Sequence record: MN342150
Reading direction: 5' to 3' (one strand)
Origin: Escherichia phage vB_EcoM_3HA11
DNA: 64,000 nucleotides
In this document: positions 97-23,854 of the stretch, in pieces
Numbering within the stretch: the first letter of the stretch is position 1
Layout of the letters: every line of letters begins with the position of its first letter
The notes under the pieces: model-generated
Databases searched by the model: none
The model's input: the letters and a program-made list of their open reading frames with translations, nothing else
Told to the model about the DNA's origin: nothing
Position numbers and translations under genes: made by a program

Positions 97-2193
97 ATGA
101 TTTCTCAATTCAATCAACCACGCGGCTCCACTTCCATAGAAGTTAACAAACAATCTATCGCTCGAAATTTCGGTGTCAAAGAAGACGAAGTCGTTTATTT
201 CACTGTCGGTATTGATCTCAGTGGATTTAAAGTAATTTATGATGAGTCTACCCAACGGGCTTATTCTCTCCCTTCCGGTATTGTTTCAGGGACAACTGCA
301 ATTAGTCTGGATGAAAGAGCTATCCTCACTCATTCCGCTGGCTCTGTTGACCTTGGGGAATTAGCAGTAAGCCGCGAAGAATATGTGACTTTACCTGGTT
401 CTTTTAATTTCGGCCATACCATTAATGTGAAAAATGAACTTCTTGTTCACGATGATGAAAAATATCGATGGGATGGTTCTTTGCCAAAGATAGTTGCCGC
501 TGGTTCTACACCTGAAACATCTGGTGGCGTTGGTATTGGTACATGGCTGAGTGTTGGTGACGCAGCATTTAGACAGGAAGCCAACAAAAAATTCAAATAT
601 TCAGTAAAGTTATCTGATTATTCTACATTACAGGATGCAGCGACAGCAGCCGTAGATGGATTGCTTATTGATGTTGACTACACTTTTACTGCAGATGAGA
701 GTGTAGATTTTAGCGGTAAAGTTTTAATCATTGAATGCAAGGGAAAATTCATTGGCGATGGTATGTTGGTTTGGAATGGTTTGGGTGCGGGTTCAGTAAT
801 TAAGAAACCGCACATGCATACTAAAACTACGCCGTATACTGTTTACCGATTCGATGCAAACGGTAATTGGGTTACAGACCCAACACAAGTTCTGGCATCT
901 GTTCAGCAGCGTTTGGATGTTGGATATAAGCCAAATATTAACGATTTAGATATTTGGGACGACCTTCCTGATAATGTAAAAAATCAGGTTGCTGGTGCTA
1001 CTTTGCGAATAATGAGCGGCGATAATATCATCGTAGAGAACCCAGAAGCTACATTTGGTGGTTATCTATTTACTTTATGTAATAGGATTCTTGTTAAGAA
1101 TCCACGCAATTTTATTGCTTTGGAATCGGGCATTACATTTGAGAACCATCATACAACTGCATGGGGTACTGGCAACTGGGTTGTTGGGGGTGAGATTAAA
1201 TATGGCTCTGGTTCCGCTGTACTGTTCATTCGCAATGATGGTGGTACAGACCATGATGGTGGAGTAAGGGATTTAATATCCTATCGCGTTGGAGAATCTG
1301 GTGTTAAAACCTATCAAAATGAAATAGGTGGTCGTTCAGCCAGGAACTACCGTTTAGTGTTCGACAATATAACTACAATCCAGTGTTACTATGATGGTAT
1401 TGATGTTAATGCTGACACAGGGTCGCCAACTGAACGTGTGGATGACTACTCACTCGCAGAGTATCCATGGTTCCACCTACCTACTCAACATATCATCCGT
1501 AATATTATTACTCGTGATTGTATGGGGATTGGTGCTTGGTGGGATGGTCAGAAAAATATTATTGATAATGTTGTTACTTATGAGGCCCATAAGGAAGGCG
1601 TCTTCGATAGGGGTACTAACAATGATATTACTAACATTACTGTAGTAGGTGCGAATAAGGATTTAACTAACCTAAATCAGATTACCTGTGAGGGAGGTAG
1701 TAGACTTCGTGGTATTAACATCCATGCATATACTACACAAGGTTACGCTATATACGCTCCGTCTTCAGAAGTAAGTAATGTTTCCTGTGCTGGTTCCGGT
1801 ACTAAGAAATTACTATGTACCTATATAAGCGATATTCAGGGAGGTAATATCAATGTTCAGCATAGTGCCAACCAAATGACACTTGCAATGCAACCTGCTA
1901 TGGGTGGTACTACAAACCCATCTTTGCTTATGACGGCAGATTGCCAGGTTGCTACACCAGGGGGTGAGGCAAGTATTGTCAAGCTTTCGGCAATTCAGGA
2001 GGGTGTACGTGTAGGTGAGTTTCAGCTTAACCGCTTAGGCTTTAAGCATATGAGTATACCTGCTGCCCCTTTACAATTACCAGAGAGCGCTCTGGAACAT
2101 AATTCATCTATAGGATTCTTCTTCGGAAGTGACGGAGCATTGAGGTTGCTTGCTAAAAAACCAGATGGAAGTTATGTAACATACACACTTTAA
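97..2193 (+). CDS. Tailspike / receptor-binding protein 1 (shared N-terminal anchor domain, distinct C-terminal domain)
   Basis: 698-aa ORF; first ~130 aa nearly collinear with the N-terminus of the ORF at 5129 (GSTS..SIAR.FG..EVVY..LSG.KVIYD..TQRAYSLP..GSVDLGELA..YRW.GSLPK) while the C-terminal parts differ: modular tailspike architecture. Confidence 0.6.
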   Translation: MISQFNQPRGSTSIEVNKQSIARNFGVKEDEVVYFTVGIDLSGFKVIYDESTQRAYSLPSGIVSGTTAISLDERAILTHSAGSVDLGELAVSREEYVTLPGSFNFGHTINVKNELLVHDDEKYRWDGSLPKIVAAGSTPETSGGVGIGTWLSVGDAAFRQEANKKFKYSVKLSDYSTLQDAATAAVDGLLIDVDYTFTADESVDFSGKVLIIECKGKFIGDGMLVWNGLGAGSVIKKPHMHTKTTPYTVYRFDANGNWVTDPTQVLASVQQRLDVGYKPNINDLDIWDDLPDNVKNQVAGATLRIMSGDNIIVENPEATFGGYLFTLCNRILVKNPRNFIALESGITFENHHTTAWGTGNWVVGGEIKYGSGSAVLFIRNDGGTDHDGGVRDLISYRVGESGVKTYQNEIGGRSARNYRLVFDNITTIQCYYDGIDVNADTGSPTERVDDYSLAEYPWFHLPTQHIIRNIITRDCMGIGAWWDGQKNIIDNVVTYEAHKEGVFDRGTNNDITNITVVGANKDLTNLNQITCEGGSRLRGINIHAYTTQGYAIYAPSSEVSNVSCAGSGTKKLLCTYISDIQGGNINVQHSANQMTLAMQPAMGGTTNPSLLMTADCQVATPGGEASIVKLSAIQEGVRVGEFQLNRLGFKHMSIPAAPLQLPESALEHNSSIGFFFGSDGALRLLAKKPDGSYVTYTL

Positions 2194-2210
2194 TTTATCT
2201 TGAGCAAAAA

Positions 2211-2235
2211 CCCCGCTTTGGCGGGGTTCTTATTA
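2211..2235 (+). terminator. Rho-independent terminator (ccccgc-tttg-gcgggg + T-rich tail)
   Basis: 6-bp GC stem, 4-nt loop, followed by ttcttatta; 18 nt after stop of ORF 97..2193. Confidence 0.6.
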
Positions 2236-2266
2236 TACCTTTGTTCATAAATTTTATTAGTTCAGA

Positions 2267-2274
2267 CTAAATAC
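2267..2274 (+). promoter_or_regulatory. Late-promoter-like box CTAAATAC
   Basis: Part of a ~95-bp intergenic cassette nearly identical to 1..96. Confidence 0.45.
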
Positions 2275-2302
2275 CCCATATTGGCAAATCCTTATGGGGT
2301 AT
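2271..2302 (+). promoter_or_regulatory. 5' leader stem-loop (ATACCCCAT / ATGGGGTAT), second copy
   Basis: Same inverted repeat as 61..92, upstream of the ATG at 2309. Confidence 0.4.
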
Positions 2303-2308
2303 TTTCAA

Positions 2309-5074
2309 ATGACCAGAAATGTAGAAGAATTATTCGGCGGCGTAATCACAGCTCCCCACCAGATTCCTTTCACGTATAAATCAAATGTCGGTGGAGAAAC
2401 TTTCCTTTCCTTGCCGTTCTATCCTGTCACTGGCGTAGTCACAATTAACGGCGGCATGCAAGTTCCGTTAGACAACTTCGAGATAGACGGGAATACGTTG
2501 AATCTCGGGCGCGCATTGTCCAAAGGCGATGTTGTGTATTGCTTATTCGATAAAATTCTTTCACCAGAAGACACTGCCAAAGGCATCCGCATATACAAAT
2601 TTCAAGCCGTGGGTGGAGAAACTGAATTCACGCCTGACTTTACTTCTTATGGTGTACAGTCTCTTTATATCGGTGGCGAGTACAAAACTCCTGATATAGA
2701 ATATTCGTACAACAGTACGACTGGGAAAGTGTCTTTGCAAACTGCATTGACTGCAGGCGTTTGGGTAGTCGCTGAAATCTCTGTTAAACAACCGAATATC
2801 AGTCCGGCGTTTGACCGCAGTATTCAAGAAATTGCCCGTTCTGCTAATGTGAAAGACTCTGAAGTCATCGTTAGTACGGACACCATATCTTTGTTGGATG
2901 GGAAGAAAGTTGTTTATGACATAGCGGCACAAACCAGTTATGGTTTACCAACCATTCCTGATGGTTCTGTCATTTCTACGATCTCAGACGGGAAATTGAA
3001 TTACAACCCAGGTGATGTGCAGGTTGATTTGTTGCCTTTAGAAGATTCATTTATTAATGTGATAAACACTCTGGGGCGCAATGATGGTGCCAAGTATATC
3101 GGAGAATGCCATTCTGTTGCTGATCTCAGGAATACTGAACCCACTATGGATGGACAACGCATTATTCTTAAGCAACACACTGCGGGTACTCTTCTTGGTG
3201 GAGGGGTATTCCGTGCGTTAATTGATGGTACAGGAAAGACTGATGATAACGGTACTGTGATCAAAACTGTTGGCGGCGCAGCCTGGTTACGTGTTAATGC
3301 TGATAGAGTTAACCCATTCATGTTTGGTGCTTTGGGTGGTTCTAATGATGATACTATTCCAGTACAATCTTGTGTGGACAGTGGTAAGGCCACACAATTA
3401 ACTGGTATACATTACGTTAGCAATATCCAGTTAAAATATAATACGTCGTCTATTTATGGGTCTGGATTACATTACTCCAGGTTGCATCAGTTGCCTTCTG
3501 CTACTGGGAATTGTATTACCATAAAAGATACATGCTCCCTTATTGTATTAGACTCCTTTGGGGTATATGGCACAGGTGCACAACAAGGCACATCATTTAC
3601 TGCGGGTACAACAGGTATCTATATAGAAACTCCTTCAGGTCTCTCAGCCGATTATCCGTTCCACACTACCGCAGACCCAAGACGCGACTTGTGTATTTCT
3701 AAGGTCCATATAGCAGGTTTTGATGAATATGGGTTAAATATTGATAGTGGTAACTTTAGTGTTACTACAGATTCTCTTTTAGTCAACCACATCAATCAGG
3801 TGGGCGTCCGTTGTGCTACTACTGATTGGACTTGGACAAATATCCAGGTTAATACCTGCGGTAAACAATGTCTGGTTCTTGATGGTTGTGGTAATGGTCG
3901 TATTATTGGTGGTAAATTCATTTGGGCTAACTGGCAACCTTATGGTACAGTAGGACAGTTCCCAGGCATTACTATTAATAATAGCCAGAATATGGTTATT
4001 AATGGTATTGAGGTACAAGATTGTGGCGGGAATGGCATTGAGATTAGCGATTCATATTCAATTTCCATGAACGGATTGAACACCAATCGTAACGGCATCA
4101 ACGCTAACAACACTTTCTACAACATCGTATTTAACAAAAGTGATGCAGTTATCAACGGATTCGTAGGACTCAATTATGCCGCGAATAGTGGTTCAGGTGC
4201 TAACTCTAGTGCGGGCAATTTTCAGTTCCTGTCTAATGATTGCAGCGTCACCATTAATGGTGTGGTTGAGACTGGTTATATGGGCATTAACTTTATTGGT
4301 GATAACAATATTATCAACCCCACAAATTCCGACCTGAGCATTAACGGATTGGTTAATTATTCCAAGACTGGTTTGCAAACCATGAACGAGACCCCTACAT
4401 TTGATGGTGTTAGCACTACACCTGTTTATGTAAGTGTCCCATCTTCTGTAGGGCAAGTAAATGGTCTGAGACTATCACAAGCCAACAAAGATAAATTACT
4501 GTACTCAAGAACAGCAGGTCCAGAAGGTATTACCATGGCTGCTGTTGTAGTACCTACCATATCTGGAGCTGAAGTATTTAACTTCATGGCCATTGGTTCA
4601 GGGTTTAGTGATACATCCAACAGTCTTCATCTTCAATTAGTTATAGACGCTTCCGGAAAACAAACAATTGCTTTGCTATTGGGGGGCGATGGTACAACCC
4701 AAATTTTATCTGGGGATTTACCTAACGACCTTAAACTACAAAGTGGTGTGCCATATCATATAGCTATTGGTGCTAAACCTGGATATTTCTGGTGGAGTAT
4801 TCTTAATATTCAGACGGGTAAGAGAATCAGACGGTCATTCCGAGGCGCTTATTTAGCTGTACCATTTAATTCTATATTCGGATTAACTTCTTCATTAACA
4901 TTCTTCTCGGATAGCAATGCTGGTGGGGATGCCTGTTCTGGTGTAGGTGCTAAAGTGTATGTTGGTATGTTCTCTTCTGAGAATGATTATGTAGCTTCAC
5001 GGTACTACAACCTGATTAATCCTGTAGACCCTAATAAGTTAATTAGTTACCGTATATTGGATTCTTCTATTTAA
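2309..5074 (+). CDS. Tailspike / tail fibre protein 2 with parallel beta-helix-like repeats
   Basis: 921 aa counted from the ATG at 2309 (ORF track opens at 2294; start chosen by analogy with the first cassette copy where the ATG inside the hairpin is not the start); Gly/Asn-rich repetitive segments (..VINGIEVQDCGGNGIEISD..NGLNTNRNGINANN..) typical of pectate-lyase-like beta-helices. Confidence 0.55.
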   Translation: MTRNVEELFGGVITAPHQIPFTYKSNVGGETFLSLPFYPVTGVVTINGGMQVPLDNFEIDGNTLNLGRALSKGDVVYCLFDKILSPEDTAKGIRIYKFQAVGGETEFTPDFTSYGVQSLYIGGEYKTPDIEYSYNSTTGKVSLQTALTAGVWVVAEISVKQPNISPAFDRSIQEIARSANVKDSEVIVSTDTISLLDGKKVVYDIAAQTSYGLPTIPDGSVISTISDGKLNYNPGDVQVDLLPLEDSFINVINTLGRNDGAKYIGECHSVADLRNTEPTMDGQRIILKQHTAGTLLGGGVFRALIDGTGKTDDNGTVIKTVGGAAWLRVNADRVNPFMFGALGGSNDDTIPVQSCVDSGKATQLTGIHYVSNIQLKYNTSSIYGSGLHYSRLHQLPSATGNCITIKDTCSLIVLDSFGVYGTGAQQGTSFTAGTTGIYIETPSGLSADYPFHTTADPRRDLCISKVHIAGFDEYGLNIDSGNFSVTTDSLLVNHINQVGVRCATTDWTWTNIQVNTCGKQCLVLDGCGNGRIIGGKFIWANWQPYGTVGQFPGITINNSQNMVINGIEVQDCGGNGIEISDSYSISMNGLNTNRNGINANNTFYNIVFNKSDAVINGFVGLNYAANSGSGANSSAGNFQFLSNDCSVTINGVVETGYMGINFIGDNNIINPTNSDLSINGLVNYSKTGLQTMNETPTFDGVSTTPVYVSVPSSVGQVNGLRLSQANKDKLLYSRTAGPEGITMAAVVVPTISGAEVFNFMAIGSGFSDTSNSLHLQLVIDASGKQTIALLLGGDGTTQILSGDLPNDLKLQSGVPYHIAIGAKPGYFWWSILNIQTGKRIRRSFRGAYLAVPFNSIFGLTSSLTFFSDSNAGGDACSGVGAKVYVGMFSSENDYVASRYYNLINPVDPNKLISYRILDSSI

Positions 5075-15378: not shown

Positions 15379-16059
15379 ATGAGCAATATGTCAGAAAGGT
15401 TACTCGCTACGCTTGATGCGGTGACCGCCCGAGACGAAGTTGGGAAGGAGGCGATGGAGGCTGTCGCCCCTCGTCCAGGTATTGACTTCGATGAAAATAC
15501 AGGTGAATGGTTTGGTGAACGTCCGGAAGGGTATCAGCCGATTCCTGAACCGCCTTCATTGGAGGATATTGCTTCCAAGGAATCCAAAGTACCTGAGTTT
15601 GCGGATACTGATGCTACAACGGATTACAAACGGATACGCGACACAACATATGCCATGCAAGAAGCCACAATGTTCATGATGGGACAAGCCGCTAAATTGG
15701 CTGCATCCACAGAAGCTCCGCGAGCATTTTCCGTGTTTCGTGAATTGGGCGAACTCATGCGCGGCCTGAACAAAGACCTGATGGAAAACCAAAAAACCAT
15801 CAAAGCTGTGACAGGGGATAAAGAACCGCCGACTGATGACACGACAGTGGATGTTACCACTTCACCCGACGGGACCACAACAGTATCTGTTGGGAAAAAG
15901 GCGAGATCTTCGCGCGATTTATTGAAGACGATCGAAGATGCACGCCGCCGCGCTGAAGAAAGAGCACAAGCAAAGGCCGCACAACAACCAGAAGATGAAA
16001 TCATTGATGGTGAAACAGTTGACGTGAAGGAAGAAGACGATGGCGTATCAGAAGCGTGA
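15379..16059 (+). CDS. Terminase small subunit (gp16-like)
   Basis: ATG after GGAGGA; immediately upstream of and overlapping the large terminase gene; assignment by synteny. Confidence 0.5.
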   Translation: MSNMSERLLATLDAVTARDEVGKEAMEAVAPRPGIDFDENTGEWFGERPEGYQPIPEPPSLEDIASKESKVPEFADTDATTDYKRIRDTTYAMQEATMFMMGQAAKLAASTEAPRAFSVFRELGELMRGLNKDLMENQKTIKAVTGDKEPPTDDTTVDVTTSPDGTTTVSVGKKARSSRDLLKTIEDARRRAEERAQAKAAQQPEDEIIDGETVDVKEEDDGVSEA

Positions 16060-18250
16060 TATAGAATATGCCCCAATTAAAACGGGGTTCAAAATAGACG
16101 ATGTGAAATTGCGTATGGACCAAACGTTCATGCGCAAACCTTCTGTGCGTGCTCCTCGAGTCGAGTTAATGCTGACAGATGAACAAGAAGACGAATTCGT
16201 TGAATGTTCTATGGATGCACACTACTTCGCCGCCAACTATTACAAGATAACCACGATCGATAAAGGCTTTATCCTTTTCGATATGCATGATTATCAGAAA
16301 CAATTGTTCCATGACTTTCAGGACTATCGATTCAATGCGGTCGTCCAGGCTCGTCAGTCCGGTAAATGCGTCCGTGGTGATACTCTTGTTTATGTCTATG
16401 ATACAATCAGTCAACAAGAGTTGCATCTCACCATAGAAGAGCTTCACAAGCGCTTCGAAGGACCGAACCATGCTGTGCCACTGAATACCATTGGCAACCA
16501 CAATAAGTTTGTAGACAGCCGTTTCGGGAAACGATATTTTGTTGAGTCCGACACTGGCTGGGTTCCGGTTATTGCCGCTCATAAAACGAAAGAATACGCT
16601 GAATACGTGGTCAGGACTGAAACCGGACGCACAATTCATGTCGCAGATGAGCACATGTTCTTCAATGAATATGGGCGCGAAGTATTTGCTAAAGACATGG
16701 AGGCTGGAGATGCCATAATGACCCAGGAGGGAATAGAATTCATCTCTGAGATCTGGGAGACTGGTGAGTACCACCACATGTATGACTTGCAAGTCAAGTC
16801 CAGCGATCAACGTTATTACACGAATGGGTTCCTCAGCCATAATACCACGGTCGTGGCTGCGTTTCTTCTTTGGTATGCGATGTTCCACTCAGACAAAGAA
16901 ATCGCGGTACTGGCAAACAAAGAGAAACAAGCGATTGAAATTCTTGACCGTATCAGGAAGGCGTATCAGGACCTCCCATTCTTCCTTCAGCAGGGTTGTG
17001 AGAAGTTTGGTTCTACACTGATAGAGTTTGAGAACGGCTCTAAGATATATGCTTATGCAACGTCTTCGGACTCTATTCGTGGTCGTTCTGTATCTCTCTT
17101 GTACGTGGACGAAGTCGCATTCATCGAAAATGACTTTGAATTTTGGGAATCAACATTCCCAGCGATCGCATCTGCTGATACTTCACGTTGTATTCTGACC
17201 AGTACTCCGAAAGGCCAGCGAGGGTTGTTCTATGATATCGTCACCAAAGCAGACCCGCGCCATCCACAATACAACGATTTCCATCTTACCGAAGTCCCTT
17301 GGTACAAGGTTCCGGCGTACACCAAAGACCCTGATTGGGAAACCAAACAACGCGCTCGTCTGGGGGATGCCCGTTTTGACCAGGAATTTGGAATCAAGTT
17401 CCGTGGTTCTGTAGGTTCATTGATACCAGCCAAATGCTTGGATAAAATGACATCCAAGTTATATCGAGAGCCTAATGAGTTCACCAAAATTTACAAGGAA
17501 TATGACCCGCAACGCATCTACTTCGGGATCGCAGATACGGGGAAAGGTGTTGAAGGAGATTATTCGGTTCTGACAATTCTGGATATAACGGAATACCCGC
17601 ATGTCATAGCGGCCAAGTACAGGAACAATACAATACCTCCGATGATGTATGCATACACGATAGCTGATATGTGTACTGAATACGGGGAGTGTCCAGTCCT
17701 TGTAGAAACCAACAACGACGTTGGTGGACAGGTTATTACAATCTTGTATCAAGAAATTGAGTATCCAGAGATTATATTCACGTCGACGGATAACAAAGGG
17801 ACAGGGAAACGGATTGGTGGTCGTAAACCAGAGCCAGGCATTAACACCAACAGGAAAGTGCGATCTATTGGTTGTGCTAACCTGAAAGCGCTTATTGAGA
17901 AAGAAATGTTGGTGATTGAAGATCAAGACACGATAGATGAACTCAGCACATTCGTGTTCCGTGGTGCGCGTTATGAAGCAGATGATGGTTGTCACGACGA
18001 CTGCGTTATGCCGTTGGTATTATATTCTTGGGCAGTTAAACAAGAATGGTTCAGTGATCTGACTTCTACCAGTATTTCTCAAGACATGAGAAATAGAATG
18101 TCTTCGACTGAGTCACAACAAGTATTCCCATTTGGTGGTTTAGTCGTGGGAGACACTCCATCTGGAACTGAGCATCTCCCTGGGTTCGGTGGTGTTCAAG
18201 TCTTCGACGAACGTTCAGGGATGACAATGGACGAGTGGTTTAAGAATTGA
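16040..18250 (+). CDS. Terminase large subunit (gp17-like), intein-containing
   Basis: Walker A split as ..ARQSGK | intein | TTVVAAFLLWY..; joined extein gives QSGKTT P-loop like T4 gp17; ~577 aa after excision. Confidence 0.9.
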   Translation: MAYQKRDIEYAPIKTGFKIDDVKLRMDQTFMRKPSVRAPRVELMLTDEQEDEFVECSMDAHYFAANYYKITTIDKGFILFDMHDYQKQLFHDFQDYRFNAVVQARQSGKCVRGDTLVYVYDTISQQELHLTIEELHKRFEGPNHAVPLNTIGNHNKFVDSRFGKRYFVESDTGWVPVIAAHKTKEYAEYVVRTETGRTIHVADEHMFFNEYGREVFAKDMEAGDAIMTQEGIEFISEIWETGEYHHMYDLQVKSSDQRYYTNGFLSHNTTVVAAFLLWYAMFHSDKEIAVLANKEKQAIEILDRIRKAYQDLPFFLQQGCEKFGSTLIEFENGSKIYAYATSSDSIRGRSVSLLYVDEVAFIENDFEFWESTFPAIASADTSRCILTSTPKGQRGLFYDIVTKADPRHPQYNDFHLTEVPWYKVPAYTKDPDWETKQRARLGDARFDQEFGIKFRGSVGSLIPAKCLDKMTSKLYREPNEFTKIYKEYDPQRIYFGIADTGKGVEGDYSVLTILDITEYPHVIAAKYRNNTIPPMMYAYTIADMCTEYGECPVLVETNNDVGGQVITILYQEIEYPEIIFTSTDNKGTGKRIGGRKPEPGINTNRKVRSIGCANLKALIEKEMLVIEDQDTIDELSTFVFRGARYEADDGCHDDCVMPLVLYSWAVKQEWFSDLTSTSISQDMRNRMSSTESQQVFPFGGLVVGDTPSGTEHLPGFGGVQVFDERSGMTMDEWFKN
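16367..16843 (+). mobile_element. Mini-intein (159 aa) inserted in the terminase P-loop
   Basis: Begins with Cys (CVRGDTLV), contains block-B-like TIHV, ends ..YDLQV....NGFLSHN followed by +1 Thr; no homing endonuclease domain. Confidence 0.8.
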
Positions 18251-18302: not shown

Positions 18303-20198
18303 ATGGCAACTCAAAGCTTCAGCGTTGCGCCGTCCGTACAGTGGACTGAGCGTGATGCCACGCTTCAGACTTCTCCGTCCGTGGTTGTTCAGGGCGCGAC
18401 AGTCGGCAAATTTCAATGGGGTGAAGTCGAACTCCCAGTGCTGGTGACTGGTGGTGAGACGGGTTTGGTGAAGAAATTCTTCAAACCTAATGACAGCACT
18501 GCGACAGATTTCCTTGTGATTGCAGACTTTTTGTCTTACAGCTCTATGGCATGGGTCACTCGTGTTGTTGGTCCTCTGGCCAAGAACTCTGTCACCAAAG
18601 GCCAGACAGCCATCACGATCAAAAACAAGCTGGATTTTGAAACAGCAAGTCCGTCAGCGTCTATCACTTGGGCTGGTCGTTATCCAGGATCTCTGGGGAA
18701 TGACATCGCCATCAATGTTTGTGACTCCGCTGGATTCCCGACATGGGAATTCCGTAACAACTTTGCGTACGCACCTCAGTCTGGTGAATTCCATGTTGTG
18801 GTTGTAGACAAAGTTGGGCGCATTACTGACTCTGCTGGTGCGGTTGGTCAGGTTGACCGTATCTCTGTTTCTGGCACGGCAACCGCAGCTGGCACCATCA
18901 GTGTGGCGGGTGAAGATATCGCATATCTGGATACTGATACTCCGGCCACTTTGGCGACCAAAATTGGCGCGGCGCTGACGGCGCTGACAGATGTTTATTC
19001 TTCTGTCGTTGTTAAGTCTAACACTGTCATCGTGACCCATAAAGCCATTGGTCCCCAGACAGTTACTGCTATTGTTCCAGATGATAAGGGGCTGACTGCA
19101 ACCGCCGTGATTACCACTGTTGGCGCATCTGGTTCTATTATCGAAAAATACGAACTCATGCAGAACACACAGGGTTCCAAAAAGTCCGATGGCGCGAATG
19201 CGTACTTCAAAGATGTCATCAATGATACATCAAATTGGGTGTACACCTTCGCCACCGCTCTGGCCGCAGGTGTTGTTGAATTAGAAGGCGGCGTAGACGA
19301 CTACAATATCAACCGTGTCGCGGCTATCCAAGTTCTGAACAACGCCGAAGCATATGATGCGAAGCCAGTATTTGCATACTGTGAAGAGTTGATTGAACAA
19401 CAGGCATTAATCGACTTGTCTACCGAGCGAAAAGACACCGTTTCCTTCGTGTCGCCTTTGCGTGATACTGTGGTCGGCAACCGTGGCCGTGAGATGGACG
19501 ATGTGGTCGCTTGGCGTGAAAGTCTGGTGCGCGACTCCTCCTATTTCTTCATGGACGACAACTGGGCATACGTGTACGATAAATACAACGATAAGATGCG
19601 CTGGATCCCTGCTTGCGGCGGTACAGCGGGTGTTTGGGCACGTAGTATTGAAATCGCGGGTATCTACAAATCTCCTGCGTTCCACAACCGTGGCAAATAC
19701 AACAACTACAATCGAATGGCGTGGTCTGCGTCTTCCGATGAACGTGCCGTGTTGTACCGCAACCAGATTAACAGCATCGTGACCTTCTCCAATGAAGGTA
19801 TCGTGTTGTATGGTGACAAAACTGGCCTGACTCGTCCGTCTGCTTTCGATCGTATCAATGTTCGCGGTCTGTTTATTATGGCAGAACAGAACATCGCTGC
19901 AATCGCCAAATATTACCTTGGTGAGAACAATGATGCGTTCACTCGCAGCCTGTTCAGCAACGCTGTTCGTCCTTATATTCGCCAACTGGCAAATATGGGT
20001 GCGATCTACGATGGTAAAGTCAAGTGTGACGAAGATAACAACACTGCTGATGTTATCGCAGCCAACACCATGGTTGCAGGCATTTGGTTGAAGCCTGAGT
20101 ACAGCATTAATTGGGTATATTTGGATTTTGCTGCAGTTCGACCAGATATGGAATTCTCCGAGATCGAATCAGGCGGCGGCATCGTTGCTGCATCCTAA
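18303..20198 (+). CDS. Tail sheath protein (gp18-like)
   Basis: 631 aa from ATG after GAGAAGGA; position between terminase and tail tube; size close to T4 gp18. Confidence 0.75.
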   Translation: MATQSFSVAPSVQWTERDATLQTSPSVVVQGATVGKFQWGEVELPVLVTGGETGLVKKFFKPNDSTATDFLVIADFLSYSSMAWVTRVVGPLAKNSVTKGQTAITIKNKLDFETASPSASITWAGRYPGSLGNDIAINVCDSAGFPTWEFRNNFAYAPQSGEFHVVVVDKVGRITDSAGAVGQVDRISVSGTATAAGTISVAGEDIAYLDTDTPATLATKIGAALTALTDVYSSVVVKSNTVIVTHKAIGPQTVTAIVPDDKGLTATAVITTVGASGSIIEKYELMQNTQGSKKSDGANAYFKDVINDTSNWVYTFATALAAGVVELEGGVDDYNINRVAAIQVLNNAEAYDAKPVFAYCEELIEQQALIDLSTERKDTVSFVSPLRDTVVGNRGREMDDVVAWRESLVRDSSYFFMDDNWAYVYDKYNDKMRWIPACGGTAGVWARSIEIAGIYKSPAFHNRGKYNNYNRMAWSASSDERAVLYRNQINSIVTFSNEGIVLYGDKTGLTRPSAFDRINVRGLFIMAEQNIAAIAKYYLGENNDAFTRSLFSNAVRPYIRQLANMGAIYDGKVKCDEDNNTADVIAANTMVAGIWLKPEYSINWVYLDFAAVRPDMEFSEIESGGGIVAAS

Positions 20199-20206
20199 GA
20201 CAACAA

Positions 20207-20230
20207 CCCCGCTTCGGCGGGGTTTTTATT
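20207..20230. terminator. Rho-independent terminator (ccccgc-ttcg-gcgggg + tttttatttcc)
   Basis: Perfect 6-bp GC stem with T-tract; between convergent sheath gene and - strand endonuclease gene. Confidence 0.7.
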
Positions 20231-21014
20231 TCCTACTGATATGCCATCCTGTGGTATTTGTTCTCTTCAATGAAGATTTCCTGTAAGGTTTAGGGATGGG
20301 ATTCTGCATCCTTCCAGCTAATGCCATGTTGAAAGATTCTATACACAAACATTGTTCTTGACAAAATTTGTTTAGATTCTTGATTTCATATTCTTCACCA
20401 GCTGGTGAAAGAAGTGTAAACCATCTCCCGAGAGATCGATTTATTTTCTCTTGAAATTCAGGATTCATACGCACTTTGTTCATAGCGATACGAAGATTTT
20501 CTTTACATTTTGGATTCTCGTATGCCTTTGTAATTCGCCGGGATTGCAATTCTTTCTTTTCTTCTGTCCACACGACCGCTTGGGATTGGGACATTTTTGT
20601 TTTACTTTCTTCTTTATGTACTAAACCGTATTGTTTTGCCACAAACAAAACATTCCAACCAGCATCATTAACTGGTTTCATTCCGATGAATTCCCTGCTT
20701 TCTATATCATATGCTGCGGCCATACCAGATATGTCTATCTGACCGCCACGGCTGATATTCAGCCCACCTTCAGAGATATGAGTCTTATGCAATTTTATGA
20801 GTTCAATTTCGTTAGAGTTTAGGTCATCGACATGGCATTCCAGCAATATTTCTTGGCTGGTAATTCCATACTTTCGGATATAGTTGTAGAGGATAGTTTT
20901 ATTCCCTCTTCTTGCTTCACCCAAATGTTCATTTACTCGATACTCAACGCCGTTTCTAGTTTGTCCGATATACTTCTTTTTACCGACGGTTAACATGTAG
21001 ATATGACCGATCAT
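20226..21014 (-). CDS. GIY-YIG homing endonuclease
   Basis: N-terminus MIGHIYMLTVGKKKYIGQT..RVNEH matches GIY-YIG motif; start at ATG preceded by GGAGGTG on the - strand. Confidence 0.75.
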   Translation of the reverse strand: MIGHIYMLTVGKKKYIGQTRNGVEYRVNEHLGEARRGNKTILYNYIRKYGITSQEILLECHVDDLNSNEIELIKLHKTHISEGGLNISRGGQIDISGMAAAYDIESREFIGMKPVNDAGWNVLFVAKQYGLVHKEESKTKMSQSQAVVWTEEKKELQSRRITKAYENPKCKENLRIAMNKVRMNPEFQEKINRSLGRWFTLLSPAGEEYEIKNLNKFCQEQCLCIESFNMALAGRMQNPIPKPYRKSSLKRTNTTGWHISRK

Positions 21015-21055
21015 ATAACACCTCCAAGAGCATAATACCCCGAAATTGTTCAACA

Positions 21056-21063
21056 CTAAATAA
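21056..21063 (+). promoter_or_regulatory. Late-promoter-like box CTAAATAA
   Basis: 18 nt upstream of the + strand endonuclease gene. Confidence 0.3.
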
Positions 21064-21081
21064 AATAGAGGTGAATTTGAA

Positions 21082-21540
21082 ATGATATACGCATACAAAA
21101 TTGAAATGGTTTGTAATGGAAAGGTCTACATCGGTGTGACCAATGACCCACAACGAAGATATGATCAGCATTTTGCGAATGCCTTTCATTATGGAGTCCA
21201 AAGTGAATTGTATGACGCCATGCGTAAGTATGGAACATCTGGATTTACTTTCGTTGTAATTGCTCAGACCGATGAAGTCCATAAATGGGAATTAGAGAAG
21301 CAACTCATCGCTCAATATAATTCTTATGAGATGGGTTACAACATGAATAAAGGCGGTAATGATGGAAGTCATATGCTGGGTAAAACTGCAGCAAAATTGA
21401 CATCCACAGGTGAACACATTGGTCTTGTTTCTCTCATAGATCCCCGTTGGGAATTGTGTGAAATCGAACCTGTTTCAAGTAATGTTCACCATGGTTTCGA
21501 TCTTTCTTCTATGAAGATTAAAAGATTGACGACTAATTAG
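21082..21540 (+). CDS. GIY-YIG homing endonuclease (short, Seg-like)
   Basis: MIYAYKIE..GKVYIGVT..RRYDQH GIY-YIG motif; RBS GAGGTG. Confidence 0.75.
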   Translation: MIYAYKIEMVCNGKVYIGVTNDPQRRYDQHFANAFHYGVQSELYDAMRKYGTSGFTFVVIAQTDEVHKWELEKQLIAQYNSYEMGYNMNKGGNDGSHMLGKTAAKLTSTGEHIGLVSLIDPRWELCEIEPVSSNVHHGFDLSSMKIKRLTTN

Positions 21541-21570
21541 AATTGTGTACTCTTATTTGGAGATATAAAA

Positions 21571-22104
21571 ATGGCGACAGTCAATGAGTTTCGCGCAGCC
21601 ATGTCACGAGGGGGCGGCGTACAACGCCAACACCGCTGGCGTGTGACTGTAAACTTTCCTTCTTTTGTTGCTGGTTCCGACACAATTCGCGACGTGTCAT
21701 TGCTGGCTGTAACTACCAACACCCCGACAGGTCAGCTGGGTGAAATTCTGGTGCCCTGGGGTGGTCGTGAACTTCCATTCCCAGGCGACCGTCGTTTCGA
21801 AGCACTGCCTGTAACATTCATTAACGTTGTGAACAACGCGCCGTACAACGCATTTGAAGTGTGGCAGCAATTCATCAATGGTAGTGAAAACAACCGCGCC
21901 AGCGCGAATCCAGATGATTATTTCCGTGATATCATCATGGAGCTTCTGGATGCGAATGACAATGTCACCAAGACATGGACTTTGCAGGGTGGCTGGCCTC
22001 AAAACCTCGGCCAATTGGAACTCGATATGTCTGCGATGGACTCTTATACACAGTTCACCGTCGATCTGCGTTATTTCCAAGCCGTGTCAGACAAATCTTT
22101 ATAA
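21571..22104 (+). CDS. Tail tube protein (gp19-like)
   Basis: 177 aa; C-terminal segment GGWPQNLGQLELDMSAMDSYTQFTVDLRYFQ resembles recalled T4 gp19 GLWPTNVGELQLDWDSNNEIQTFEVTLALDYW. Confidence 0.8.
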   Translation: MATVNEFRAAMSRGGGVQRQHRWRVTVNFPSFVAGSDTIRDVSLLAVTTNTPTGQLGEILVPWGGRELPFPGDRRFEALPVTFINVVNNAPYNAFEVWQQFINGSENNRASANPDDYFRDIIMELLDANDNVTKTWTLQGGWPQNLGQLELDMSAMDSYTQFTVDLRYFQAVSDKSL

Positions 22105-22171: not shown

Positions 22172-23854
22172 ATGGCTGGATACGGCAGAGGGTTCTTCGG
22201 TTTGTTTGGCGGCGGCGGTTTGGTGAACGCTAAAGTCGACACCGATAAGTTAGCCCAAAAACAAGATGAACGGTTGCTAACCAAAGCGACAGTTGTTGCT
22301 CTGGACGACGCTCAAGACGGTTCTATAATCCTTCAGGGTGGTGCGAACACCTACAACTATGTTGGCGTTGAAAGTGAACTTCTCAGCGTTAAAACAGTTG
22401 TGGAAGAATATCAGTCCATGGCTCAACAGCCTGAAATTCGCAAAGCGGTGGACATTATTGTCAATGATGTTGTCACCTGTGAGGAAGATGAAACTCCAGT
22501 GACAGTAAACCTTGACAAAGTTGAAGGGATATCTGATACTGTTAAAGAATCTATCACTGAATGCTTCAAAGAAGTTATGCACTTGATGGACTTTGACAAT
22601 ACGGCATATCAGAAGATCCGGAAATGGTATGTTGACGGTCGACAAGCATATCATGTCATCGTTGATCCCACGAATAAAAAAGGCGGGATCAAGAAATTAG
22701 TTATGCTTGATTCTCGTTGCATTCGTCCTGTCTATATCGTTGAGAAGGCGATGCGTGAAGGCGGTATTGAAGCAATAGAATCCGTAACATTGAAGTATTA
22801 TTACAACCCGAATTATAATCGAAACCAATTCACTGGCCAATCTGGTACTTCCCAGAACTTCCAGCCTTCACAGCAAGAACTCGTATTCGATGACGAAAGC
22901 ATTGTTTACATCGATAGTGGTGAAGAGCCATTGGCCAATGGTATTGTCCCAGGCCTTTTAAATCCTGCTATCCGTCCGTTGAACAACCTGGTTACGACTG
23001 AAGATGCGACTGTAATTTATGCCATCACTCGCGCCCCTGAGAAACGCGCATTCTATCTTGACGTCGGTACTCTCGGTAAGAAATCTGCTGAAGAATACAT
23101 GACCATGATGATGGGTAAATTCAAAAACCGCAACGCATATGACCGCACCACTGGTAAGATAACAGGTAATGCCCATCTTATGGGTATTGCAGAGGATTAT
23201 TGGTTGCCGCGCCGCGAAGGTCAGAATGCTACAGAGATCGCGACTGTTGGGGGTGGGAATCAATTGGGTGAAATGGATCACGTGAACTATTTCCGTGAAA
23301 AACTCTATGATGCTCTAATGATCCCTAAGAGCCGCCTCCAAGAGGAAGGATCTATTAACATTGGGGGTTCTAACCTTGCGGAGATTACACAGGAAGAGCT
23401 GCGTTTCAGCAAGTTCTGTGCTGGGTTACGTCGTCGTTACTCCCATTTCTTTATGGAGTTTTTACGTCGCCAATTAATTTTGAAAGGCGTGACTGACGAA
23501 AAAGATTGGAATGAAAAAATCAAGCCGTTTATTAAGTTTGAATTCACTTCTGATAGCTATATTCGTGAGCAACAAGAAAACGCCATATTAAATGATCGCC
23601 TGGCTTCTCTGAACACTGTTGAGCCTTTTGTTGGTTCTATATTCTCCATCGATTATGTCATGCGGAATGTTCTGCGTATGTCAGACGAAGAAGTTAAAGA
23701 ACAACAGGCTAAGATCGCGGAAGAGAAGAAGAAAGGTCTCTATCCGAAGGTTCAAGCAGATGAAACTGGCAATTATAGTGGTTCAGATGTTAGTCCGTTG
23801 AAGTTTAAACCTGAGACTCTCCCATTCTCCGGTTCAACAGACGATAGTATTTAA
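22172..23854 (+). CDS. Portal vertex protein (gp20-like)
   Basis: 560 aa; segments IYAITRAPEKRAFYLDVG, EDYWLPRREGQNATE and C-terminal MSDEEVKEQQAKIAEE resemble recalled T4 gp20. Confidence 0.85.
   Translation: MAGYGRGFFGLFGGGGLVNAKVDTDKLAQKQDERLLTKATVVALDDAQDGSIILQGGANTYNYVGVESELLSVKTVVEEYQSMAQQPEIRKAVDIIVNDVVTCEEDETPVTVNLDKVEGISDTVKESITECFKEVMHLMDFDNTAYQKIRKWYVDGRQAYHVIVDPTNKKGGIKKLVMLDSRCIRPVYIVEKAMREGGIEAIESVTLKYYYNPNYNRNQFTGQSGTSQNFQPSQQELVFDDESIVYIDSGEEPLANGIVPGLLNPAIRPLNNLVTTEDATVIYAITRAPEKRAFYLDVGTLGKKSAEEYMTMMMGKFKNRNAYDRTTGKITGNAHLMGIAEDYWLPRREGQNATEIATVGGGNQLGEMDHVNYFREKLYDALMIPKSRLQEEGSINIGGSNLAEITQEELRFSKFCAGLRRRYSHFFMEFLRRQLILKGVTDEKDWNEKIKPFIKFEFTSDSYIREQQENAILNDRLASLNTVEPFVGSIFSIDYVMRNVLRMSDEEVKEQQAKIAEEKKKGLYPKVQADETGNYSGSDVSPLKFKPETLPFSGSTDDSI

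Follow-up and report, generated by a model that had tools for sequence, protein, structure and literature searches.

In Escherichia phage vB_EcoM_3HA11, two genes for GIY-YIG proteins separate the tail sheath gene from the tail tube gene. The two most probably differ in age and status: one is a complete, mobile endonuclease gene (gene C), and the other is an old, vertically inherited gene whose product has no helix-turn-helix module (gene A152). The DNA analysed (the window, i.e., the whole stretch of 64 kb) belongs to Kuttervirus (Ackermannviridae), with 99.6% identity to the Salmonella phages Hercules_SET and SJ2. The initial annotation had placed two GIY-YIG open reading frames, one per strand, between these tail genes, and the match of both to family profiles is far beyond chance. 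A hidden Markov model built from the two nuclease domains found only these two copies in the window. Duplication as the origin of the pair was rejected, because the proteins are only 28% identical.

To the left of the pair is the tail sheath gene (T4 gp18-like; 18303–20198, plus strand; Pfam Phage_sheath_1C, PHROG 23), the start of which was adopted from the annotation of phages Vi01 and Det7 (locus position 534 is window position 18303). To the right is the tail tube gene (T4 gp19-like; 21571–22104, plus strand; Pfam Phage_T4_gp19, PHROG 45), and the portal gene is also among the flanking genes. The sheath gene is followed by an intrinsic terminator (20205–20224, plus strand), a hairpin of the form AACCCCGC-TTCG-GCGGGGTT with a run of T, which is likewise present in Vi01, in Klebsiella phages and in Se-J. 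The stop codon of gene C (20226–21014, minus strand) falls within the T-tract of this terminator. Gene A152 occupies 21082–21540 on the plus strand. The two start codons are separated by a spacer of exactly 67 bp (21015–21081), the length given at the outset, once gene C is taken to start at the ATG at 21014. Both genes have their ribosome-binding sites within this spacer: GGAGGTG for gene C on the minus strand and GAGGTG for A152 on the plus strand.

In T4, the junction of the sheath and tube genes is contiguous, as had been pointed out initially; to our knowledge, no element lies between T4 genes 18 and 19, and the insertion sites of the T4 Seg endonuclease genes differ from this one. The junction is also contiguous in some members of the phage family. 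Across 34 loci the gap was found in the following states: empty, A152, C with A152, B with A152, C alone, A235 alone, B alone, and D. An empty gap measures 77–78 bp and is found, for example, in Ag3, P46FS4, MK-13, Gloob and EspM4VN; an occupied gap contains one of four endonuclease families. In Kuttervirus, Taipeivirus and Agtrevirus, C-type genes with 58–90% identity lie in this slot, always in one orientation. Neither gene of the pair is conserved at this position in all relatives, A152 coming close to it within the genus. At least four endonuclease families compete for a single intergenic slot, in a phage family that is employed for biocontrol and therapy.

Gene C was identified by profiles, by alignment with I-TevI and by a structural model. 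The minus-strand open reading frame as listed (20226–21098) begins at a TTG, but translation is taken to start at the ATG at 21014, which is preceded by GGAGGTG and kept in all homologues. The 262-amino-acid protein matches PHROG 314 (E=4.7e-29) and TIGR01453 (E=1.8e-7); its match to Pfam PF01541 (17.2 bits, E=0.0066) is below the threshold (cutoff 22.6), and PF01541 is present in six of its nine homologue clusters in precomputed annotation. A wide protein search gave nine clusters each for C and for A152, the word-index method being one that may miss distant relatives. In this superfamily a GIY and a YIG motif stand near the N-terminus, some 9–11 residues from each other. In C these are G3-H-I-Y6 and Y15-I-G17, which align with I-TevI Y6 and Y17, and the catalytic residues R26, H30, E69 and N86 (R27, H31, E75 and N90 in I-TevI) are invariant among homologues. 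The N-terminal nuclease domain is followed by NUMOD3-like helices and, at the C-terminus, by a helix-turn-helix-like module that is conserved and common to the A235 and B proteins. This module is probably a DNA-binding helix-turn-helix, as suggested by motif resemblance and sub-threshold profiles; the assignment is provisional, because the Pfam HTH and NUMOD3 matches are only sub-threshold and were obtained on A235, not on gene C, for the C-terminal half of which the Pfam search gave no match. The structural model of C is moderate (mean pLDDT 61, with the linker below 50; about 70–85 in the nuclease domains of the C and A152 models). It has the alpha/beta nuclease fold, and superimposes on the I-TevI catalytic domain (1LN0) with a TM-score of 0.66 and an rmsd of 2.6 Å, and on UvrC with TM-scores of 0.5–0.6; its best match in the PDB is I-HmuI (E=0.017), and a PDB search with the 262-residue sequence gave no match at E up to 1. 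As judged from its sequence, gene C is a complete free-standing homing endonuclease with the build of I-TevI and the T4 Seg proteins, and with predicted activity.

Gene A152, identified by profiles, alignments and a structural model, encodes a protein of 152 amino acids that matches PF01541 (E=3.9e-10, 40.3 bits; cutoff 22.6) and PHROG 5123 (E=8.3e-94). Its motifs Y3-A-Y5 and Y16-I-G18 also align with I-TevI Y6 and Y17, and its catalytic residues R26, H30, E72 and N87 are invariant in the homologue alignment. Thus, the catalytic residues, the presence of which had been made the touchstone of the family assignment, are intact in both genes. The A152 model, with the same alpha/beta fold, matches 1LN0 with E=9.7e-4 and a TM-score of 0.69; the tail (residues 80–152) has pLDDT below 50 on a nine-sequence alignment, and the model gives no fold for it. 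The protein has a conserved linker module (STGEHIG..DPRW), and is without the C-terminal helix-turn-helix-like module found in full-length A235, B and C. Nucleotides 124–392 and 442–519 of A152 align with nucleotides 127–392 and 666–747 of A235. By this alignment, A152 is an old internal-deletion derivative of the 235-amino-acid endonuclease A235.

The region of the pair includes two similar boxes. The first, CTAAATA (21056–21062, plus strand), is 19 nt upstream of the A152 ATG and had been noted as late-promoter-like. The motif CTAAATAcCcc has been published for Ackermannviridae (PMC7283392), and CTAAATA at 21056 is, on its strand bias and position, a putative late-type regulatory box of this family. 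The window holds 12 copies, which is not above chance (7.3 expected), so that the argument is one of strand bias and position: 11 of the 12 are on the plus strand, and nine are about 20–45 nt upstream of start codons. The spacing between this box and the start codon of C is conserved in every C cassette, and the box is missing upstream of A152 in Kuttervirus phages that lack C. The second box, CTAATTA (21533–21539, plus strand), overlaps the stop codon of A152 and precedes the tube ATG by 32 nt. A CTAA[A/T]TA box is present about 30–37 nt upstream of the tube ATG in 34 of 34 loci examined, empty sites included, and CTAATTA at 21533, within the last codons of A152, is probably the promoter of the tube gene. 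Of the divergent promoter region first proposed for the spacer, the plus-strand half is supported by the putative CTAAATA box, but gene C on the minus strand has no convincing promoter: a sigma-70 consensus scan of both strands of the 67-bp spacer found none, and the early motif TTCAAT-N14-TATAAT (PMC7283392) was not matched there in a check by eye. A weak TTTAGT-N17/18-TA...T arrangement is kept upstream of C in five loci, and is a candidate only.

The comparison with relatives lacking the insertion, which had been recommended at the outset, reveals gene C as part of an 854-bp insertion relative to Vi01, with a linked patch in the sheath gene. The cassette (20227–21080; blastn breakpoints at 20226 and 21081) comprises the endonuclease gene and its upstream region with the outward-facing CTAAATA box; Vi01 has 27 unrelated bp in its place. 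The backbone of the window is Vi01-like, with 0–2 mismatches per 100 nt, except for this insert and a patch at the 3′ end of the sheath gene (20051–20203, plus strand), which is read as a co-conversion tract. The patch has 32 mismatches to Vi01 in 153 nt, compared with 24 in the preceding 2280 nt, and the codon changes are 25 synonymous and one non-synonymous. Patch and C allele go together without exception across 96 records: full identity of the patch is confined to the 10 records bearing the identical C allele, and it is 91% identical in records with an 84% C allele, and at most 88% identical in every record lacking C. The window and Det7 are near-identical only over 19647–21689 (seven mismatches), with flanks that are 5–18% divergent. 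Among close relatives gene C is polymorphic for presence or absence at one fixed site, and in the records compared it is always at the sheath–tube locus and nowhere else. Near-identical C alleles with a linked patch, set within divergent backbones, are by sequence comparison the hallmark of homing with co-conversion. On its right-hand side the tract has no definable limit, since Vi01, Det7 and the window do not differ in that stretch. The locus offers a clear natural case of homing in which the co-conversion tract is mapped. It also accounts for a local mosaic in the sheath gene, by which phylogenies or typing schemes using that gene could be misled.

From these comparisons we infer how gene C would spread. 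In a mixed infection with a relative lacking C, such as Vi01, the enzyme would cleave the C-less DNA in the region of the sheath terminator or 3′ end. After resection, the break would be repaired from the C-bearing genome, and the repair would copy the 854-bp cassette together with at least about 150–180 nt of the donor sheath 3′ end. The spread of C would be intronless homing, genetically visible as marker exclusion, and biased inheritance of the sheath 3′ end is predicted in mixed Kuttervirus cocktails. Since the cassette lies between the sheath terminator and the outward-pointing late-type CTAAATA box, late expression of the downstream genes would be preserved. A152 derives from a full-length endonuclease of 235 amino acids, from a second family, which lost its helix-turn-helix by an internal deletion of about 224 nt, the extreme 3′ end with the tube promoter box being retained. 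Its inheritance is vertical; autonomous homing is no longer likely, and purifying selection still acts on it. A152 may be a passive passenger in the homing of C or of another neighbour (trans homing) or, alternatively, it may still have some role as a nuclease.

The polymorphism of C could also have arisen by repeated loss, with C ancestral in the slot and deleted in Vi01-like phages. The C-type genes in the same slot and orientation in three genera imply an old association, and an imprecise deletion might leave a junction such as that of Vi01, with its unrelated bp and no CTAAATA upstream of A152. This account is improbable, however, as the C allele and the patch are identical where the surrounding sheath, tube and portal sequences differ, and the remainder of the window is of the Vi01 type. 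Whatever happened earlier, a block that is identical within divergent backbones must have been transferred horizontally in recent times. Besides such transfer, C may also have been lost in some lineages.

For A152, the evidence points in another direction than for C. Were both genes active, autonomous and independently acquired, each driving its own homing, the full set of GIY-YIG catalytic residues in both would be accounted for, as would the ribosome-binding site of A152 and, in the window, its CTAAATA box; and its absence from some family members means that it entered the slot at some time. However, A152 lacks the C-terminal module common to the full-length proteins, and about 197 of about 277 related records, from at least three genera, contain a copy of it with at least 80% identity; it is fixed in most Kuttervirus and Taipeivirus and in some Serratia phages. 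Its divergence follows that of its flanks (dS of 1.5 compared with 0.85 to saturated), like the remaining backbone it agrees with Vi01 (100% identity for A152), and empty A152 sites are found only in distant relatives, with no presence/absence polymorphism among near-identical genomes. We therefore regard autonomy of both genes as quite unlikely. An equally low probability is given to A152 being a dead relic, the frame of which persists only through the tube promoter at its 3′ end and too little time for decay. What the deletion spared at the 3′ end is indeed precisely the part with the CTAATTA box, Kuttervirus phages lacking C have no recognisable promoter box upstream of A152, and an embedded promoter has a precedent in T4 (PMC2988022). 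A need for the promoter would not, however, constrain the amino acid sequence across the whole of A152, in which dN/dS is 0.04–0.10 in both halves of the protein at near-saturated dS (0.08 for the window and Klebsiella phage 0507-KN2-1), the length and the linker module are kept down to 55% identity, and the catalytic residues are invariant. Among 5.8 billion proteins searched, all nine A152 homologue clusters have 105–174 amino acids, and eight of the nine have 151–174. That A152 is a pseudogene was rejected on the grounds of dN/dS and length conservation. As A152 is widely fixed, shortened and under purifying selection, it is an old resident rather than a recent arrival. Thus, the double mobile-element insertion of the initial annotation holds for C, with its footprint of homing and co-conversion, but not for A152.

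The strong conservation of A152, its tail included, is at odds with a purely defunct relic, and it is of some interest why a nuclease without a DNA-binding domain has stayed so long under selection. Tentatively, and with more doubt than belief, A152 may be seen as a domesticated “headless” GIY-YIG nuclease (catalytic domain and linker) kept for the benefit of the phage, which would have been retained since before Kuttervirus, Taipeivirus and some Serratia phages split. It might cut the DNA of competitors or of the host with relaxed specificity, guard the slot, or act with a DNA-binding partner. If so, STGEHIG..DPRW would be a new small DNA-recognition element, common to three endonuclease families at the slot.

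The pair itself is already known. GenBank annotates the same genes in the same place as Det7 genes 5 and 6 (YP_009140182, YP_009140183), and the same pair is present in SJ2, Hercules_SET, PhaxI, SenM-2, Phi_10, RA148, bering and EP75; the gene C protein is 100% identical in Det7, SJ2 and PhaxI, and the Vi01 orthologue of A152, also 100% identical, is the GIY-YIG endonuclease Vi01_159c. Since both genes are annotated in public phage genomes, the locus is a clear but ordinary case of selfish phage nuclease genes. The public orthologue records give names only (GIY-YIG homing endonucleases), with no mention of truncation, mobility or co-conversion, and the literature search found no paper on C, A152 or the slot in Kuttervirus, only general remarks on endonuclease variability and a table for LIMEstone1. 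In that Dickeya phage, a mobile, Hef-like free-standing endonuclease, F-LimVIII, adjoins the tail tube gene on the opposite strand (PMC3296691). F-LimVIII (locus L026) has the same sheath–tube slot in the same phage family, and is likewise antisense, but is an unrelated protein of 608 amino acids with DUF7487 and a DUF559/Vsr-like nuclease, not GIY-YIG.

I-TevI, from the T4 td intron, has the same modular design (GIY-YIG domain, linker and C-terminal helix-turn-helix, the last being provisional in C) and the same Tyr, Tyr, Arg, His, Glu and Asn residues as C and A152. Its nuclease domain is matched by both models, being the best structural match for A152, with 24–27% identity in the structural alignments. 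C and A152 differ from I-TevI in not being intron-encoded and in having no evident zinc finger, and A152 also in lacking a DNA-binding domain. T4 offers precedents for co-conversion, marker exclusion, embedded promoters, an antisense segD and trans homing (PMC2988022; PMC2790892). In T4, trans homing involves mobE, an intact free-standing endonuclease gene adjoining the truncated, defunct I-TevIII (PMC2790892; PMC2988022). By analogy, intact C adjoins truncated A152, and breaks made by C would co-convert A152; the T4 enzymes, however, belong to the HNH family, and C-driven trans homing of A152 is an analogy only. The T4 genes segA to segG, the enzymes of which act by intronless homing and marker exclusion, are free-standing GIY-YIG genes between essential genes, as at the sheath–tube slot, with co-converted flanks and with promoters of downstream genes in or adjoining the endonuclease gene. 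T4 segD is antisense between genes 23 and 24, without a promoter of its own (PMC2988022), and gene C, like segD, is antisense between late structural genes. The Seg proteins differ in having no detectable close sequence kinship beyond the nuclease domain; a SegE domain profile matches a B-family member weakly (E=0.002).

Between the tail sheath and tail tube genes of the window there is a slot that holds two GIY-YIG genes, one on each strand. The phage is a Kuttervirus (Ackermannviridae, Vi01-like): its 5.6-kb sheath-to-portal segment, which matched 277 phage records, shares 99.6% identity with Salmonella phage vB_Hercules_SET and 99.5% with SJ2. The genes for the terminase large subunit (16040-18250), tail sheath (18303-20198), tail tube (21571-22104) and portal (22172-23854) are all on the plus strand. 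Within the slot, gene C (20226-21014, 262 aa) is on the minus strand and gene A152 (21082-21540, 152 aa) is on the plus strand. The start of C is a conserved ATG at 21014 with GGAGGTG ahead of it (a mechanical ORF list had TTG at 21098), and thus the spacer to A152 is 67 bp, as given by the initial annotation, whose GIY-YIG pair is confirmed by the ORFs, the conserved ATG and the profile matches. An HMM made from both nuclease domains revealed no third copy in the 64-kb window. The mechanism proposed here is the textbook mechanism of T4 Seg endonucleases. The kind of element is already known: the exact genes are in public records under the name GIY-YIG homing endonuclease (genes 5 and 6 of Det7; Vi01_159c), and free-standing endonucleases in Ackermannviridae, together with a mobile element at the sheath–tube slot, have been published (PMC3296691).

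The profile matches of both proteins are far beyond chance: Pfam GIY-YIG (3.9e-10) and PHROG 5123 (8.3e-94) for A152, and PHROG 314 (4.7e-29) and TIGR01453 (1.8e-7) for C. Alignment of both with same-slot relatives and the nuclease domain of I-TevI showed conservation of the GIY Tyr, the YIG Tyr-x-Gly and the equivalents of I-TevI R27, H31, E75 and N90. These residues are Y6, Y15/G17, R26, H30, E69 and N86 in C, and Y5, Y16/G18, R26, H30, E72 and N87 in A152, and are invariant among the homologues of each. AlphaFold gave models of moderate confidence (mean pLDDT 61 for C and 54 for A152; nuclease domains about 70-85), and for both the best PDB match is the I-TevI catalytic domain (TM 0.66 for C; TM 0.69, E=9.7e-4 for A152); the C model also matches the modular endonuclease I-HmuI. 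Full-length proteins of the slot have in common a C-terminal module (F-x-L-x-S-P-x-G-E..N-L-x-x-F-C..G-L..P-x-P..R-x-N-T-T-G-W), which resembles the I-TevI helix-turn-helix and has HTH and NUMOD3 profile matches that are sub-threshold only. A152 ends ahead of this module.

The gap was taken from 33 related loci and the window, and its ORFs were clustered. It is empty (77-78 bp) in the P46FS4-type locus L024, in L031 and, by DNA search, in Ag3, Gloob, MK-13 and EspM4VN. A152 is alone in Vi01, many Kuttervirus, Klebsiella Taipeivirus and Serratia IME250; C (minus strand) accompanies A152 (plus strand) in the window, Det7, SJ2, PhaxI, bering, EP75 and Klebsiella cp18; and C is alone in Se-J, SP-9-14 and SW16-7. 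A third GIY-YIG family, B (about 230 aa), shares the plus strand with A152 in ECML-4, an S118-size locus, KpS110 and phiMAM1/KNP4, and is alone, barely, in Dickeya Coodle, while BRM 13314 has only A235, a 235-aa full-length relative of A152. Family D (603-608 aa, minus strand; DUF7487 plus a Vsr/DUF559-like nuclease) is found in a LIMEstone1-size locus (L026, about 1420-3250) and in the Kuttervirus-like L013 and L018; it is evidently the published Hef-like F-LimVIII (PMC3296691). The slot is a hotspot for at least four endonuclease families. In Ackermannviridae, endonucleases vary in sequence and keep their positions (PMC5582154), and differences in gene content are mostly due to endonuclease genes (PMC8472413).

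Some loci have further features. In L013 and L018, a plus-strand 127-aa ORF of unknown function lies beside D. In a metagenomic Ackermannviridae contig (L023, about 2250-3500), the 1254-bp sheath–tube gap has no GIY-YIG gene. It holds small ORFs of 100 and 125 aa, neither with a known function; the 125-aa one is related to that 127-aa ORF. In ECML-4 (NC_025446), the A152 homologue is annotated in RefSeq as 106 aa from position 3322 of the extracted locus; the whole 152-aa frame is intact (3184-3642) and shares 98.7% identity with the protein of the window, and its ATG and the stop codon of the B-type gene ahead of it overlap (ATGA).

By comparison with its relatives, C is a recently mobile cassette. 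The alignment with Vi01 runs to 20226 and resumes at 21081, with 854 bp in place of 27 unrelated bp of Vi01. Outside this segment the window is Vi01-type (0-2 mismatches per 100 nt), except for a patch at 20051-20203 (roughly the final 150 nt of sheath plus the first bases downstream), which has 32 mismatches in 153 nt, compared with 24 in the 2280 nt ahead of it; the last 57 sheath codons have 25 synonymous differences and one non-synonymous difference. Against Det7 the pattern is reversed: 19647-21689 is nearly identical (7 mismatches), whereas the sheath, tube and portal outside it differ by 5-18 per 100 nt. In a search with the patch only, it was 100% identical in the 10 records with a 100%-identical C protein, 91% identical in the 7 with an 84%-identical C allele, and at most 88% identical in all C-less records; the patch is strictly linked to the C allele. 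C-type genes have a constant slot and orientation, and are under purifying selection (dN/dS 0.09-0.21). Such a footprint is expected when homing proceeds by double-strand-break repair and flanking markers are co-converted, a mechanism established for T4 (PMC2988022): C would cut a putative target site in the C-less allele, and the C-bearing allele would be immune.

The initial annotation, which had regarded the pair as a double mobile insertion, is upheld for the minus-strand gene by the 854-bp insert, the patch linkage and the Det7 block, and also for its promoter-like motif; the plus-strand gene was judged too generously, being no second active invader but a truncated, long-fixed derivative. 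Homologues of A152 with at least 80% identity occur in about 197 records, from Salmonella and Escherichia Kuttervirus, Klebsiella Taipeivirus (83-84%) and Serratia IME250 (82%), with forms at 55-63% identity in other Serratia phages. Eight of nine homologue clusters among 5.8 billion proteins have 151-174 aa, the ninth being a 105-aa fragment. Between the window and Vi01, A152 does not differ at all, in line with the Vi01-like backbone around it. It is an old, shortened resident, vertically inherited.

A235 is 59% identical to A152 over the first 128 residues; in the DNA alignment, A152 nt 124-392 and 442-519 correspond to A235 nt 127-392 and 666-747, so that A152 lacks about 224 nt, which code for the NUMOD3-like and helix-turn-helix part, and retains the extreme 3′ end. 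By this alignment, A152 arose by deletion from a full-length form. It is nonetheless not decaying, with a dN/dS of 0.08 at dS 1.5 against Klebsiella phage 0507-KN2-1 (nuclease domain 0.09, tail 0.04) and a linker module (S-T-G-E-x-I-G..D-P-R-W) among its best conserved parts. A152 is probably incapable of homing by itself. It may be carried along during the homing of a neighbour, by analogy with mobE and the defunct I-TevIII (PMC2790892), and it may keep a nuclease role visible to selection. Current knowledge does not explain a nuclease that lacks a DNA-binding domain and is under purifying selection across several genera.

The late-promoter-like box is a real motif, as shown by its strand bias, its position and the published CTAAATAcCcc, which PMC7283392 gives as a regulatory motif specific to the family. 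CTAAATA has 12 copies in the window against 7.3 expected, a count not above chance; 11 of the 12 are on the plus strand, and in nine cases a start codon with a ribosome-binding site follows about 20-45 nt downstream, among them the starts of the sheath gene and of the gene after the portal. The box at 21056 is read as part of the C cassette: every C cassette has it at a conserved distance from the start of C, both where A152 follows on the plus strand and where the tube gene does, and C-less Kuttervirus lack it ahead of A152. Pointing outward, it would re-establish late transcription beyond the antisense insert. The 3′ end of A152 contains a CTAATTA box, and every locus, even an empty one, has such a box about 30-37 nt ahead of the tube start codon; in T4, an embedded promoter favours the retention of the endonuclease gene that contains it (PMC2988022). 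The hairpin of the sheath terminator (20205-20224) lies directly next to the stop codon of C. A consensus scan detected no promoter for C. The closest precedent is T4 segD, which likewise lies antisense between two late genes and lacks a promoter of its own (PMC2988022).

Two near-identical copies of a unit occur at 42-125 and 2252-2335: TTTTATTAGTTCAG(G/A)CTAAATACCCCATATTGG.., followed by the complement of the CCCCATA stretch (..TATGGGGTATT) directly before a start codon, i.e., the full CTAAATAcCcc motif and a possible hairpin. When the 5′ gap ends of L002, L011, L024 and L028 were compared with those of other loci, two alternative sheath terminators were found in the family, AACCCCGCTTCGGCGGGGTT and ATGCCCTCTTCGGAGGGCAT; among the gap ends inspected, the latter occurs in the two B-family loci, ECML-4 (L002) and Coodle, the empty Agtrevirus L024 and the Serratia-type L028. 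This suggests that sheath terminators are exchanged together with cassettes.

Elsewhere in the window, the terminase large subunit has a 158-aa insertion (residues 110-267, about 16367-16840) exactly inside the Walker A loop: the alignment with T4 gp17 runs up to ..SRQLGK at residue 109 and begins again with KTTVVA.. at residue 268. The first residue of the insert is Cys, its last two are His-Asn, and Thr comes next. With a sub-threshold match to Pfam Intein_splicing, the insert resembles a mini-intein that lacks an endonuclease domain. Terminase genes of equal length (2208-2211 nt) are annotated in Vi01, Det7, ECML-4, the Klebsiella phage and Coodle.
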